Positions 1,588 to 35,763 of a DNA stretch of 64,000 nt are shown one piece after another. Origin of the DNA: Escherichia coli. Its GTDB lineage: Bacteria; Pseudomonadota; Gammaproteobacteria; Enterobacterales; Enterobacteriaceae. The stretch lies in the NCBI RefSeq assembly GCF_030384885.1, contig NZ_CP128613.1; one strand, 5' to 3'. How positions within the stretch are numbered: position 1 is the stretch's first letter; each line of letters starts with the position of its first letter. The position numbers and the translations under genes are program-made. Under the pieces are notes generated by a model, which worked only from the letters and a program-made list of their open reading frames with translations, ran no database searches and had not been told where the DNA came from.

Positions 1588-1645
1588 TGTCTTAAACCTA
1601 TAAAAAAGGCGCAGAATCCTGCGCCTTTTGTTTCAAGAGTTAGCT

Positions 1646-4351
1646 TTATTGCAGGCGACCGTGGCACTGCTTGTATTTTTTACCAGAACCGCACGGGCAA
1701 GGATCATTACGTCCAACTTTGCGTTCACCGGTTTGTGCCGCCAGTGCAGCTGCGGCTGCAGAGTCATCATCCTGATGGCTAAGCTGCTGCATTTGCGCTA
1801 AACGCTCGGCTTCCATACGACGCTGTTGTTCCAGCTCTTCAACCTCTTCAGGCATACGTACCTGGACTTTGCTCAGCGTGCTGATGACTTCATATTTCAG
1901 CGACTCCAGCATCGCTGCAAACATGGAGAACGATTCACGTTTGTATTCCTGCTTCGGATCTTTCTGTGCATAGCCACGCAGGTGGATACCTTGACGCAGA
2001 TAATCCATCGCTGCCAGGTGCTCTTTCCACAGGGAGTCAAGCGTTTGCAGCATGACGCCTTTCTCGAAGTGACGCATCATCTCAGCGCCAACCACTTCTT
2101 CTTTACGCTGATACACTTCGATGGACTGCGCCAGAATACGCTCACGCAGCGTCTCTTCATGCAGTTCTGGCTCTTTGTCCAGCCACTCGGCAATCGGCAA
2201 ATCGAGGTCGAAATCGTTCTTCAGACGTTCCTGCAGCCCCGGAATATCCCACATTTCTTCCAGCGACTGCGGCGGAATGTAGGCATCGATGGTCGCTTTG
2301 AACACATCTTCACGAATGCTGTTGATGGTATCGCTCACATCGCTGACATCCAGCAGTTCATTACGCTGGGAGTAAATAGCGCGACGCTGATCGTTAGCCA
2401 CGTCATCATATTCCAGCAGTTGCTTACGAATATCGAAGTTACGGCTTTCAACTTTACGCTGAGCGTTGGCAATCGCTTTGGTCACCCACGGGTGCTCGAT
2501 GGCTTCGCCTGGTTTCATACCCAGTTTACGCATCATGCCGGAAACACGGTCAGAAGCAAAAATACGCATCAGCGCATCTTCCATCGACAGGTAGAAACGG
2601 GAAGAACCGGCATCCCCCTGGCGCCCAGAACGACCGCGTAGCTGGTTATCGATACGACGAGATTCGTGACGTTCTGTACCGATGATATGCAGACCACCTG
2701 CAGCCAGTACCGCATCGTGACGCACCTGCCAGTCGGCTTTGATTTTTTCAATTTGCTCTGCGGTCGGATTTTCCAGCGCGGCAACTTCTGCCTGCCAGCT
2801 ACCACCGAGCACAATATCTGTACCACGACCCGCCATGTTAGTCGCGATAGTCACCGCCGCCGGATAACCCGCTTGTGCAACAATCGCTGCTTCGTTAGCG
2901 TGGAATTTGGCGTTCAGAACGTTGTGTTTGATACCGGCTTTGGTCAGCTCGTTTGACACCAATTCCGATTTTTCGATGGAGATAGTACCCACCAGCACTG
3001 GCTGGCCCTTCGCAGTACGCTCTTTGATATCTTCGATGATCGCCTGGATTTTTTCCGCTTCAGTCATATAGACCAGATCTGGCAGATCTTTACGAATCAT
3101 CGGACGGTTGGTTGGAACAACAACGGTATCCAGCTTGTAGATTGAGCTAAATTCGAAAGCTTCGGTATCAGCAGTACCGGTCATGCCCGCCAGTTTTTCA
3201 TACAAACGGAAGTAGTTCTGGAAGGTGATCGACGCCAGCGTCTGGTTTTCGTTCTGAATCTGTACACCTTCTTTCGCTTCCACTGCCTGATGCAGGCCAT
3301 CGGACCAGCGACGTCCCTGCATGGTACGACCGGTGTGTTCATCAACGATGATAACTTCACCATCTTTAACGATGTAGTCGACGTCACGGGTAAACAGTGC
3401 GTGAGCACGCAGCGCCGCGGTTACGTGGTGCATCAGCATAATATTAGCCGGAGAGTACAGCGACTCCCCTTCATCCATGATGCCTTCTTTCACCAGCAGC
3501 TCTTCGATCAGCACCAGACCACGTTCAGTCAAGTTCACCTGGCGAGATTTTTCATCCACCGAGAAGTGGCCTTCGCCCTGGAAGGTTTCGGAGTCTTCTT
3601 TTTCCTGACGAATCAGGTGCGGAATGATTTTGTTCACGCGTTTATACATTTCCGAGCTGTCTTCAGCCGGGCCGGAAATGATCAGCGGTGTACGCGCTTC
3701 ATCGATCAGGATGGAGTCCACTTCGTCCACCAGCGCATAGTGCAGTTTACGTTGTACACGTTCTTCAGGGCTGAATGCCATGTTATCGCGCAGGTAGTCA
3801 AAGCCGTATTCGTTGTTCGTACCGTAAGTGATGTCAGCTGCGTAAGCTTCACGCTTCGCCGGTGCTGGCATGCCCGGCAGGTTGATACCGACAGTCAGGC
3901 CAAGGAATTCAAACAGCGGACGGTTGTTTTCGGCGTCACGTTGCGCCAGGTAGTCGTTGACGGTAACAACGTGTACGCCCTTACCGGTTAATGCGTTCAG
4001 GTAAGCAGGCAGCGTTGCGGTCAGGGTTTTACCTTCACCGGTACGCATTTCCGCGATGCAGCGTTCGTTAAGAACCATACCGCCGAGTAACTGAACGTCG
4101 AAGTGACGCATACCAAAGACGCGCTTACTTGCCTCACGCACCACAGCGAAAGCTTCTGGGATCAGATTTTCCAGCACTTCGCCTTTTTCCAGACGTGCAC
4201 GAAACTCTGCGGTTTTCCCTTTCAGTTCTTCGTCGGAGAGTTTTTCCATCTCCGGTTCCATGGCATTGATGATGTTGACGACTTTGCGCATCCGGCGCAG
4301 GGTGCGATCGTTACGACTACCGAAAACTTTAGTTAATAATTTGATTAGCAT
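1646..4351 (-). CDS. secA: preprotein translocase ATPase SecA
   Basis: 901-aa ORF with Walker A GEGKT and C-terminal zinc-binding [14 protein letters not shown]. Confidence 0.95.
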
Positions 4352-6173: not shown

Positions 6174-7325
6174 TTAATCAGCTTGCTTACGCAGGAATGC
6201 TGGGATATCCAGATAATCCGGCTCTTTCGCAGTTTGCGGTGCGTTGTCATTCACGACTTTAGCAACCGGTTTCTGCTCCTGAGTCAGCGGTGCCATCCCG
6301 TGCTGCTGGTAGCGATCCATCACTGGCTGCTGAACCTGCTTATTGGTCACCAGGGTGATTTCAGGACGTTTGTCCATACCGATACCTGTCGCAACAACAG
6401 TTACGCGCAGCTCGTCATTCATATCCGGGTCAAGAGAAGTACCGATAACCACAGTTGCGTTGTCGGATGCAAATGCACGGATGGTGTTACCTACCGTTTC
6501 GAACTCATCCAGACGCAGGTCGAAGCCCGCCGTGATGTTAACCAGCACGCCGCGCGCGCCAGACAGATCGATATCTTCCAGCAGCGGAGAGGAGATAGCC
6601 ATTTCAGCAGCTTCTTCCGCACGGTCTTCGCCGCTCGCCACACCAGAACCCATCATTGCGTAGCCCATTTCAGACATTACGGTACGTACGTCTGCAAAGT
6701 CCACGTTCATCAGGCCTGGACGAGTAATCAGTTCAGCGATACCTTGCACAGCACCTTTCAGTACATCGTTCGCTGCGCCAAATGCATCCAGCAGGGAAAT
6801 ACCGCGGCCCAAGACTTTCAGCAGTTTGTCGTTAGGGATAGTGATCAGAGAGTCCACATGCTTGGACAGTTCTGTGATCCCCTGCTCAGCGAATGCCATA
6901 CGCTTCTTGCCTTCAAAGTTGAAAGGCTTAGTCACGACAGCAACGGTCAGGATCCCCAAATCTTTTGCCACTTCAGCGACAACTGGTGCTGCACCAGTAC
7001 CGGTACCACCACCCATACCCGCAGCAATAAAGACCATGTCTGCACCTTCCAGCGCCGCACGCAGTGCATCGCGATCCTCATCAGCCGCATTACGGCCAAC
7101 TTCTGGATTTGCGCCAGCTCCCAGTCCTTTGGTGATACCGCTACCGATTTGAATCGTCTGTCCAACCGCTGTTTTACGCAGCGCTTGTGCATCGGTATTT
7201 ACCGCGAAGAATTCAACACCTTCAATGCGCTCGCGCACCATGTGTTCAACAGCATTACCGCCGCCGCCGCCGACGCCGATGACTTTAATCACCGCGTCAT
7301 TGGTAAGTTCCATTGGTTCAAACAT
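6174..7325 (-). CDS. ftsZ: cell division GTPase FtsZ
   Basis: 383-aa ORF with tubulin signature GGGTGTG and N-terminal [12 protein letters not shown]. Confidence 0.97.
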
Positions 7326-7385
7326 AGTTTCTCTCCGATTTGTGCCTGTCGCCTGAGGCCGTAATTATCGTCGGCCTCATAAAAA

Positions 7386-8648
7386 TTAAAACTCTTTTCG
7401 CAGCCAACTATTGAGTCGCTTGATCCACGAGCCAACTGATGCTGTAACACGTTTTTCTACTTCAGCTTCACCGTTAAGATGTGACTCTTTCCCATAGTGA
7501 AGCAATCCCACCGCCGTCGAATAATACGGCTCCTGAGCATAATCCGTTAAACCGGTAATGTTCAGCGGCGCGCCGATACGCACTTGCGTATGAAACACGC
7601 GCTGAGCACAGGCTGCAAGACCTTCGATCTGCGCTGCGCCACCAGTTAAAACAATGCCTGCCGCCAGGTGATGTTTAACCCCTTGTTGGCGAAGCTTTTC
7701 CTGCAACTGCAATATCTCTTCGTTGACCAGGTTGAGCAGCTCGGTATAGCGCGGCTCGATCACCTCTGCCAGGGTCTGACGTTGCAGACTCCGCGGTGGA
7801 CGACCGCCTACGCTAGGCACTTCCACGCTCTCATCTTTTCCAACGATGGAACCCAGCGCACAACCGTGGCGAACTTTAATCGCTTCGGCGTCGCTTGGCG
7901 GCGTGCCAAAGGCGTAAGCGATATCACTGGTCACGACATTGCCAGCATAAGGAATTACCTTAGTGTGGCGCAATGCCCCACCGGTATAAACGGCGATATC
8001 CATTGTACCACCACCGATATCGACGACGCAGACACCCAGTTCACGTTCATCTTCCGTCAATACCGAATAACTTGATGCCAGTCCGGCAAATATCAGTTGG
8101 TCAACTTTCAGCCCACAACGTTCAACCGCTTTGACGATGTTTTTCGCCATATCGTTGTGACATGTGATCAGGTGCACTTTTGCCTGCATCCGCACGCCCG
8201 AAAGTCCTACCGGATTCTTGATCCCTTCCTGATAGTCAATCGCATACTCTTGCGGGATCACATGCAGCACACGATGCTCATCGCGCACACGCACTGATTT
8301 CGCGGTATGGACGACGTTTTCCACATCTTCTTGCGTCACTTCTTCTTCAGAAATAGGCACCATACCAATTTCATTCTGGCAGCTGATGTGCTTACCAGAA
8401 AGCGCCAGATATACCGAAGAGATCTGACAATCTGCCATCAATTCTGCCTGGTCAATGGCGCGTTGTACGCACTTGACCACGGATTCGAGGTCGTTCACCC
8501 CGCCTTTATCCATACCACGCGACGGGCAGCTGCCCACGCCAATGATATTGACCATACCGTCGGGCAGAACTTCCCCTACTAAAGCGGCAACCTTCGCGGT
8601 ACCAATCTCCAGTCCTACTACCAGTTTTCTGTCCGTCGCCTTGATCAT
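7386..8648 (-). CDS. ftsA: cell division protein FtsA (actin-like ATPase)
   Basis: 420-aa ORF; dcw cluster synteny. Confidence 0.95.
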
Positions 8649-31763: not shown

Positions 31764-33780
<2,017 letters not shown>

Positions 33781-33811
33781 TTTGTACACCGTCCGGCACT
33801 CAATCGCCAAA

Positions 33812-34040
33812 AAGAAAAAAGCCAGCAGATAATCACTGCTGGCGTGGCGATTAACACCAATACTCAGTCACACATGATGTCCGCAAATCAGTAGTCAGAA
33901 TGACTCCCCTCCCACTGCATCAGCTCTTCAAGCATGGTTAATCGTTGTGGGACGCTTAACCAACGCAACCAGCACAACGTCGCTGTCGCGGTAAAATAGT
34001 GCTGATAAAACTGACGCATGGGGCACCTCCTTGCTTCATC
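33812..34040 (-). ncRNA. sgrS: SgrS small RNA (glucose-phosphate stress), dual-function
   Basis: 5' end reads GATGAAGCAAGGAGGTGCCCCATG on the minus strand; ptsG-pairing region GTGTGACTGAGTATTGGTGT; 3' hairpin ccagcagtgattatctgctgg plus T-run; divergent from sgrR. Confidence 0.8.
33888..34019 (-). CDS. sgrT: SgrT small protein encoded within SgrS
   Basis: 43-aa ORF MRQFYQHYFTATATLCWLRWLSVPQRLTMLEELMQWEGSHSDY inside the sgrS transcript. Confidence 0.7.
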   Translation of the reverse strand: MRQFYQHYFTATATLCWLRWLSVPQRLTMLEELMQWEGSHSDY

Positions 34041-34107
34041 GTTAGGAATTATTGACTTAATATAGGGAAAATAAAATTGCTGACTTTTGCGCAGGAGTTC
34101 CCCTTTT

Positions 34108-35763
34108 ATGCCATCCGCTCGTCTGCAACAACAGTTCATCCGCCTGTGGCAATGCTGCGAGGGTAAATCGCAGGACACGACGCTCAACGAACTGGCAGCG
34201 TTATTGAGCTGCTCGCGTCGTCATATGCGCACCCTGCTCAACACCATGCAGGATCGCGGCTGGCTGACGTGGGAAGCGGAAGTCGGGCGCGGTAAACGCT
34301 CTCGTCTGACATTCTTCTACACCGGGCTGGCGCTTCAGCAACAGCGAGCAGAGGACCTGCTGGAGCAGGATCGTATCGATCAACTGGTGCAACTGGTTGG
34401 CGACAAAGCGGCTGTGCGGCAAATGTTGGTTTCTCATCTGGGGCGTACCTTCCGCCAGGGGCGGCACATCCTGCGCGTTCTCTACTATCGTCCGTTGCGC
34501 AATCTGCTGCCCGGCAGTGCATTGCGCCGTTCCGAAACCCATATCGCCCGGCAAATCTTCAGTTCGCTAACGCGCATAAATGAGGAAAATGGGGAACTGG
34601 AAGCAGACATCGCCCACCACTGGCAGCAAATATCACCGCTTCACTGGCGCTTCTTTTTGCGTCCAGGAGTCCATTTTCACCATGGTCGTGAACTGGAAAT
34701 GGACGATGTGATCGCCTCTTTAAAACGAATCAATACGCTTCCGCTCTATTCACATATTGCGGACATTGTGTCGCCGACGCCCTGGACGCTGGATATCCAT
34801 CTCACGCAACCGGACCGCTGGTTACCGTTACTGCTGGGGCAAGTTCCGGCGATGATCCTGCCACGAGAATGGGAAACCCTCAGTAACTTTGCCAGCCATC
34901 CCATCGGCACCGGTCCGTATGCGGTGATCCGCAACAGCACCAATCAACTGAAAATTCAGGCATTCGATGACTTCTTCGGTTACCGGGCATTAATCGACGA
35001 AGTTAACGTCTGGGTTCTGCCGGAAATTGCCGACGAGCCAGCCGGCGGTCTGATGCTAAAAGGTCCACAGGGCGAGGAAAAAGAGATTGAAAGTCGGCTG
35101 GAGGAAGGTTGCTACTATTTACTGTTCGACAGCCGCACCCACCGTGGGGCGAATCAGCAAGTCAGGGACTGGGTAAGTTATGTGCTTTCTCCAACTAATC
35201 TGGTCTATTTCGCCGAGGAACAATACCAGCAACTCTGGTTTCCGGCTTATGGACTGCTCCCCCGCTGGCATCATGCCCACCCGGCGCAGTGCGAAAAACC
35301 TGCCGGGCTGGAAAGCCTCACCCTGACCTTTTATCAGGATCATATTGAGCATCGGGTGATTGCCAGGATCATGCAGCAGATTCTGGCAAGTCATCAGGTC
35401 ACACTTGAAATTAAAGAGATCAGCTATGATCAGTGGCACGAAGGAGAGATCGAGAGCGATATCTGGCTTAACAGCGCCAACTTTACGCTGCCGCTGGATT
35501 TTTCGCTGTTCGCGCACTTGTGCGAGGTGCCGCTGCTCCAACACTGTATTCCGATCGACTGGCAAGCCGACGCCGCCCGCTGGCGCAATGGCGAAATGAA
35601 CCTGGCGAACTGGTGCCAGCAACTGGTCGCCAGCAAAGCAATGGTGCCGCTCATCCACCACTGGCTGATCATTCAGGGGCAACGCAGTATGCGCGGCCTG
35701 CGCATGAACACTCTCGGCTGGTTCGATTTTAAATCCGCGTGGTTTGCGCCACCGGATCCATGA
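34108..35763 (+). CDS. sgrR: transcriptional activator SgrR
   Basis: Start trimmed to [15 protein letters not shown] to give 551 aa; N-terminal HTH plus solute-binding-like domain. Confidence 0.9.

Follow-up and report, generated by a model that had tools for sequence, protein, structure and literature searches.

The stretch of Escherichia coli DNA analysed here (64,000 nucleotides, referred to below as the window) carries the glucose-phosphate stress locus in a form that lacks setA, laid out as leuD, then sgrS (containing sgrT) in the opposite orientation, and then sgrR in the same orientation as leuD. The leuD coding sequence, taken from the list of open reading frames, lies at positions 33175-33780 on the plus strand; it encodes 201 amino acids and ends in a TAG stop codon at 33778-33780, and its product matches TIGR00171 with 340 bits in an HMM search. 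A spacer of 33 bp (33781-33813) separates it from a complete sgrS gene of 227 nt on the minus strand (33814-34040), within which the sgrT open reading frame occupies positions 33888-34019. The sgrR coding sequence (34108-35763, plus strand) encodes 551 amino acids and belongs to the NF010149 equivalog, with an NCBIfam score of 1122 bits over residues 1-550 (cutoff 476); SgrR is 97.5% identical to its K-12 counterpart at the amino acid level, a value taken from a near-identical genome. The 5' end of sgrS (34040, minus strand) and the start of sgrR (34108, plus strand) are arranged divergently around a region (34041-34107) that is near-identical in an alignment of all Escherichia alleles, and this is the common promoter region from which the two genes are predicted to be transcribed in opposite directions. 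Downstream of sgrR are a TPP riboswitch and then thiB. The related strains IAI39, Sakai and 042 carry an inserted espY2 in the interval from sgrR to the thiB riboswitch; the window has no espY2 there.

Both SgrS and SgrT are intact in the window, as had been proposed in an earlier interpretation made from the letters alone (hereafter the sequence-only reading). The Rfam model of SgrS (RF00534) matches positions 34040-33814 of the minus strand along its full length (model positions 1-232), scoring 228 bits (gathering score 37, E = 4.7e-64). The 20-nt seed for base-pairing with ptsG and manX, GUGUGACUGAGUAUUGGUGU (33854-33873, minus strand), lies in the 3' part of the RNA and is the same as in K-12 by sequence comparison; it is the predicted pairing region for the ptsG mRNA, the ptsG gene itself being outside the window. 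The intrinsic terminator (33814-33843, minus strand) was recognised by a terminator scan, by folding and by comparison across genera. Its hairpin (33843-33821) has an 8-bp stem with six G-C pairs and a 7-nt loop, the sequence being GCCAGCAG-UGAUUAU-CUGCUGGC followed by UUUUUUC, and in the scan the hairpin is followed by TTTTTTCTTT. A G+C-rich 8-bp stem and then UUUUUUCUUU make this, in both scan and fold, a Rho-independent terminator with a poly-U tail, and the tail is a predicted Hfq binding site. The 3' end of the gene does differ from the K-12 sequence, as the sequence-only reading had put forward: identity over the last 87 nt is 75.9% (a comparison too short for a reliable tree), the differences falling in the terminator loop, a small upstream hairpin and the C-terminus of SgrT, with the 20-nt seed unaffected. 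This allele is already in the literature, as the sgrS gene of the window is of the CFT073/O157 type, whose SgrS was reported to be 88% identical to that of K-12 (Horler & Vanderpool 2009, PMC2760817).

The form of the terminator does not track the presence of setA: the setA-bearing Citrobacter and Enterobacter share the U6C tail with the setA-less alleles, and the U6C tail has therefore not arisen in adaptation to a missing setA. A bidirectional sgrS terminator is likewise unsupported, the hairpin on the plus strand preceding GUGGCGAUU with no U-run. The terminator scan found no leu-operon terminator on the plus strand after leuD, and the leu operon lacks any terminator-like site of its own ahead of sgrS. 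Around the hairpin, at 33801-33852, a perfect inverted repeat of 8 nt (AATCGCCA ... TGGCGATT) flanks the A-run and the sgrS terminator; it is kept in the aligned setA-less alleles, with one substitution in E. albertii, and one of its arms falls in the spacer that a deletion would have created. The repeat may be fortuitous.

The sgrT open reading frame translates, from an ATG start on the minus strand, into 43 amino acids, 35 of them identical to K-12 SgrT and the changes mostly C-terminal. It is preceded by a Shine-Dalgarno sequence, AAGGAGGU, that is unoccluded in the fold. A GGGGGUGCCCC hairpin limits sgrT translation in K-12 and two others (3 of 15 E. coli strains in PMC2760817), and in the window a G to A change in this K-12-type hairpin breaks it and leaves the Shine-Dalgarno sequence free. 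No NCBIfam HMM matched SgrT of the window, so its membership rests on sequence identity and on annotation, the same open reading frame being annotated as 'glucose uptake inhibitor SgrT' in a genome that is 99.99% identical. In Sakai O157:H7 the sgrT start codon is ATT and not ATG, as was also described by Horler & Vanderpool 2009 (PMC2760817); the window retains ATG.

What the locus lacks is setA. The interval between leuD and sgrS is 33 bp in the window versus 1254 bp in K-12 MG1655, where it holds the 1179-bp setA gene, so that 1221 bp, setA included, are absent from the window. These figures bear out the sequence-only reading on three points: it had placed the sgrS terminator about 30 bp from the leuD stop codon (with correct coordinates), had taken a segment of about 1.2 kb carrying setA to be missing, and had stated that K-12 has setA at this same position. 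A tblastn search with K-12 SetA over the full 64-kb window gave no match (best E = 3). It is scarcely credible that the junction is an artefact of the assembly or of the window, produced by the collapse or faulty joining of a contig: the window aligns at 99.99% with a complete chromosome, that of E. coli 2013C-4282 (NZ_CP027579.1, 2619417-2683416), with seven mismatches and no gaps in 64 kb, and thousands of complete assemblies made independently have this junction too.

The spacer retains a recognisable trace on its sgrS side. Positions 33803-33813 or thereabouts read TTTTTGGC on the sgrS sense strand and retain homology to the Citrobacter spacer between sgrS and setA; this homology to setA-bearing Citrobacter runs about 12 nt beyond the T-run (TTTTTTC-TTTTTGGC) and then ends. 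The leuD-proximal 22-25 bp (approximately) have no recognisable counterpart in the leuD-setA spacers of the outgroups, and because those spacers are too variable, neither a deletion scar nor a flanking direct repeat is definable on the leuD side. Reading through the junction sequence revealed no setA remnants or flanking direct repeats.

Among complete E. coli genomes the setA-less arrangement is common. A 1-kb query across the junction was found contiguous in 2159 of 5426 genomes (about 40%), and in the remaining genomes the query splits exactly at the 3' end of sgrS. The K-12 setA gene is present in 3241 of the 5426 (at least 99% identical in 3228 of these 3241), and the junction-bearing and setA-bearing genomes are complementary sets. 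By sensitive blastn, setA was present with at least 95% identity in 3240 genomes, while the other 2182 records had best matches of 60-80% identity and no complete E. coli genome fell in the class of 80-95%. The matches listed for setA-less records fell on a 148-nt patch of the paralog setB (72-73% identity), a gene present in almost all E. coli genomes. The lack of an intermediate identity class argues against setA having moved elsewhere in setA-less genomes, and relocation of the gene, which had been raised as an outcome that would overturn the sequence-only reading, found no support: neither megablast nor sensitive blastn returned a second or diverged setA in the setA-less complete E. coli genomes.

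Among the reference strains, setA is missing from CFT073 (phylogroup B2), 042 (D), Sakai O157:H7 (E) and IAI39 (F), and also from B36. The proposed natural variant of the stress module without its efflux component is thus real in that setA is absent, but with its junction in the B2, D, E and F reference strains and in 2159 of the 5426 genomes it is not a special one. The absence of setA here is an ordinary, widespread and already published gene-content polymorphism; in Gonzalez-Alba et al. 2019 (PMC6896753), a reconstruction of gene content has setA acquired by the A/B1 sublineage.

The lineage from which the window comes is a rare and divergent one within E. coli, since the window is about 96% identical to K-12 and likewise to a B2 strain; at least 99% identity at the locus is reached in only 2 of the 5426 complete genomes. 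A recent loss of setA by deletion in this lineage alone, as the wording of the sequence-only reading implied, would be in keeping with that rarity and with the presence of setA at the site in the K-12 reference; it is nevertheless very improbable, as the junction occurs in 2159 genomes and in Escherichia species that are about 10% diverged, and the remnants or direct repeats that were looked for at the junction were not seen.

The wider distribution of setA suggests that the loss is much older. A scan for the SgrS seed, with one genome per species, yielded 47 loci, none of them named E. fergusonii, E. marmotae, E. ruysiae, Shigella or S. enterica subsp. enterica (strain-level names being possible). 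In every non-Escherichia sgrS locus that extends far enough, SetA directly follows sgrS, with 77-94% amino acid identity to K-12 SetA; the outgroups with sgrS-setA comprise Citrobacter, Salmonella arizonae and diarizonae, Klebsiella, Raoultella, Enterobacter, Siccibacter, Pluralibacter and Superficieibacter. With all assessable outgroup loci carrying setA, sgrS-setA is the older arrangement in the family. Within the genus, on the other hand, setA is missing from four of five sampled divergent Escherichia genomes: E. albertii, E. whittamii, Escherichia sp. E1V33 and 'E. coli' SCPM-O-B-8794 share the junction of the window, their alignments with it differing by only a few substitutions and a 2-bp indel. 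In all, the alignment showed this junction in five genomes besides the window, which represent four lineages or more. E. albertii is 90% identical to the window in the 3' end of leuD and 91% in the 5' part of sgrS, so that the flanks of the setA-less alleles have diverged at the between-species level, which fits vertical inheritance of the deletion. The same junction across species, the species-level divergence of its flanks and the presence of setA in the outgroups together point to one old, vertically inherited deletion. A single event of about 1.2 kb early in Escherichia would have removed setA, taking with it the ribosome-binding site and coding sequence of the gene and the leuD-setA terminator region, and the 33-bp spacer of the window would be the junction that it left.

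K-12 differs from the setA-less alleles on both sides of setA. On the sgrS side (33814-33925, minus strand, from the terminator to about codon 32 of sgrT), a map of private differences together with sliding identity revealed 25 differences private to K-12 against every setA-less allele within 112 nt, versus 2 in the next 590 nt or so. On the leuD side (33708-33780, plus strand) the last 70 nt or so of leuD contain six K-12-private differences, and identity to K-12 over 33698-33783 is 80% versus a background of 93-98%. The C-terminus of LeuD reads ...QPAFMR* in the window, in other setA-less Escherichia and in Salmonella and Citrobacter, and ...FMN* in K-12; as judged from this distribution, the K-12 C-terminus is the derived state. 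K-12 setA is 77-80% identical in nucleotides to the setA genes of Citrobacter and Salmonella, and K-12 sgrR is 78-80% identical to theirs. With this equal divergence setA looks like a gene of Escherichia depth, with no clear sign of having been imported from a different genus, which places any donor about as far from Citrobacter and Salmonella as Escherichia is. A large protein search returned only near-identical E. coli SetA and identified no donor of the K-12 setA block.

The block is seen to move: in Escherichia sp. MOD1-EC7003 the setA-sgrS block is 98-99% identical to K-12 versus 92-94% in the background, and it thus passes between lineages by homologous recombination. Positions 1-600 of the MOD1-EC7003 locus (the 5' part of setA, and sgrS/sgrT), at 98-99% identity to K-12, indicate a recent inter-lineage transfer. 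At the 3' end of sgrR (window positions 35277-35676), K-12 is 85-87% identical to the window and to B36, the background being about 95-98%, and this divergence suggests another patch of recombination.

The window carries the common setA-less form of the locus, which very probably goes back to one deletion of setA early in Escherichia, with a later return of the gene to its old site in the A/B1 lineage of K-12. The A/B1 lineage, K-12 included, would have regained setA through homologous replacement of a block of about 1.4-1.6 kb, comprising the last 70 nt (approximately) or more of leuD, setA itself, and the last 110 nt or so of sgrS with the C-terminus of SgrT. Within E. coli, setA of K-12 is most likely the derived state; the proposed direction, loss and then regain, draws on parsimony and on the short flanks. 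The two sides are evenly balanced, in our judgement, on a more specific version, namely that K-12 carries an allele atypical of its genus, with one loss followed by restoration in A/B1(/C) from an unsampled, deeply diverged Escherichia-like donor, by a swap of about 1.4-1.6 kb that included the 3' end of SgrS, its terminator tail and the C-terminus of SgrT, and with the block still being exchanged between species, as in MOD1-EC7003.

An ancient balanced or trans-species polymorphism would account for the same distribution with no re-acquisition: setA would have descended vertically from the ancestor of the enterobacteria to A/B1/C, and a single deletion allele would have come to B2/D/E/F and to other Escherichia species by lineage sorting or by recombination between species. 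Such a history would agree with setA in every assessable outgroup locus, with a setA gene that does not look foreign (in K-12 it and the adjacent sgrR are equally distant from the outgroups), with recombination of the block between Escherichia lineages (MOD1-EC7003), and with the limitation of haplotype divergence to a few hundred bp, as for an old polymorphism eroded by recombination. We consider it unlikely, because setA is found in K-12 and in no B2, D, E or F reference strain checked, and is absent from four of the five divergent Escherichia; moreover, the diversity of setA is very low (at least 99% identity in 3228 of 3241 genomes), the between-species divergence of the flanks fits vertical descent of the deletion and not its spread, the K-12 leuD C-terminus is derived, and the published reconstruction calls setA a gain (PMC6896753). 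An early loss followed by a same-site regain is accordingly the reading that we prefer.

With regard to function, setA lies just downstream of sgrS and is activated by SgrR (PMC4021124), and the accessible parts of two further studies (PMC4509938, PMC9765468) are consistent with a SetA arm in K-12 that depends on transcription past the sgrS terminator from the sgrS promoter. In the strain of the window, the response from SgrR to SgrS and SgrT (repression of ptsG and manXYZ, and inhibition of PtsG) should work as in CFT073-type strains, and its SetA branch would be missing; read-through of the sgrS terminator would here produce only RNA antisense to the 3' end of leuD. At the sgrS-leuD locus K-12 cannot stand for E. 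coli as a whole: about 40% of the complete genomes of the species, among them uropathogenic CFT073 and O157:H7 Sakai, have the stress response without SetA and with another SgrS 3' end and SgrT C-terminus. Conclusions drawn in K-12 on the role of SetA in stress, or on regulated read-through of sgrS into setA, are not simply transferable to setA-less strains. The apparent loss of setA and its restoration at the same site would also illustrate, on a small scale, how an ancestral gene order can be rebuilt by homologous recombination.

Several features elsewhere in the window were also recorded. Rfam matches PssrA ('plasmid-encoded Shigella sRNA A') with 107 bits at 7317-7406 (minus strand), in the chromosomal dcw cluster at the 3' end of ftsA and the start of ftsZ, where the name of the family is misleading; a further Rfam match, to STnc40, lies at 1602-1670 (minus strand) at the mutT/secA junction. 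Between rluA and djlA, the region 51759-52700 holds an espY1 open reading frame (51954-52700, minus strand), encoding the T3SS effector EspY1, beside a transposase remnant; K-12 has the same transposase remnant at this position and then yabQ. The gap between apaH and folA (60797-61528) contains a ccdB remnant and a 204-amino-acid open reading frame of the 'plasmid pRiA4b ORF-3 family' (60914-61528, minus strand), and looks like a small insertion derived from a mobile element in a core region.

Compared with known systems, the locus shares with K-12 MG1655 the gene order leuD, sgrS(sgrT), sgrR and TPP riboswitch-thiBPQ, the 20-nt seed, and an SgrT of 43 amino acids. It differs from K-12 in the terminator tail (U6CU5 in the window, U8 in K-12), in 8 of the 43 residues of SgrT, mostly at the C-terminus, in the last residue of LeuD (R in the window, N in K-12), and in the hairpin that occludes the sgrT ribosome-binding site in K-12 and is absent from the window. 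With the CFT073/Sakai-type allele it has in common both the setA-less junction and the sgrS allele, and B36, which shares the SgrT protein accession of CFT073, does not differ from the window in the 87 nt at the 3' end of sgrS (100% identity). CFT073 itself has an IS200C in the T-run of its sgrS terminator (GCUGGCUUUUUU / IS200), an insertion that the window lacks; this IS200C puts about 0.8 kb between sgrS and leuD, and does not restore setA.

The loci of Citrobacter, Salmonella, Enterobacter and Klebsiella have the sgrS seed in common with the window, and those of Citrobacter and Enterobacter also its terminator form, GCCAGCAG...CUGCUGGC-U6C. Unlike the window, these four genera keep setA right after sgrS, and their leuD-setA spacers, with long inverted-repeat stretches, have no counterpart in the window. 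The presence or absence of setA has been noted before: the synteny figure of Horler & Vanderpool marks setA where it is present (PMC2760817), and Gonzalez-Alba et al. 2019 (PMC6896753) report the same pattern, with setA in A/B1 only, and treat it, in the accessible text, as a plain acquisition. Given that related genera have setA at the site and other Escherichia have the setA-less junction, this published gain looks like a restored loss. What the present analysis adds is modest: the setA-less junction is common to several Escherichia species, and setA of K-12 looks like a restoration at the same site.
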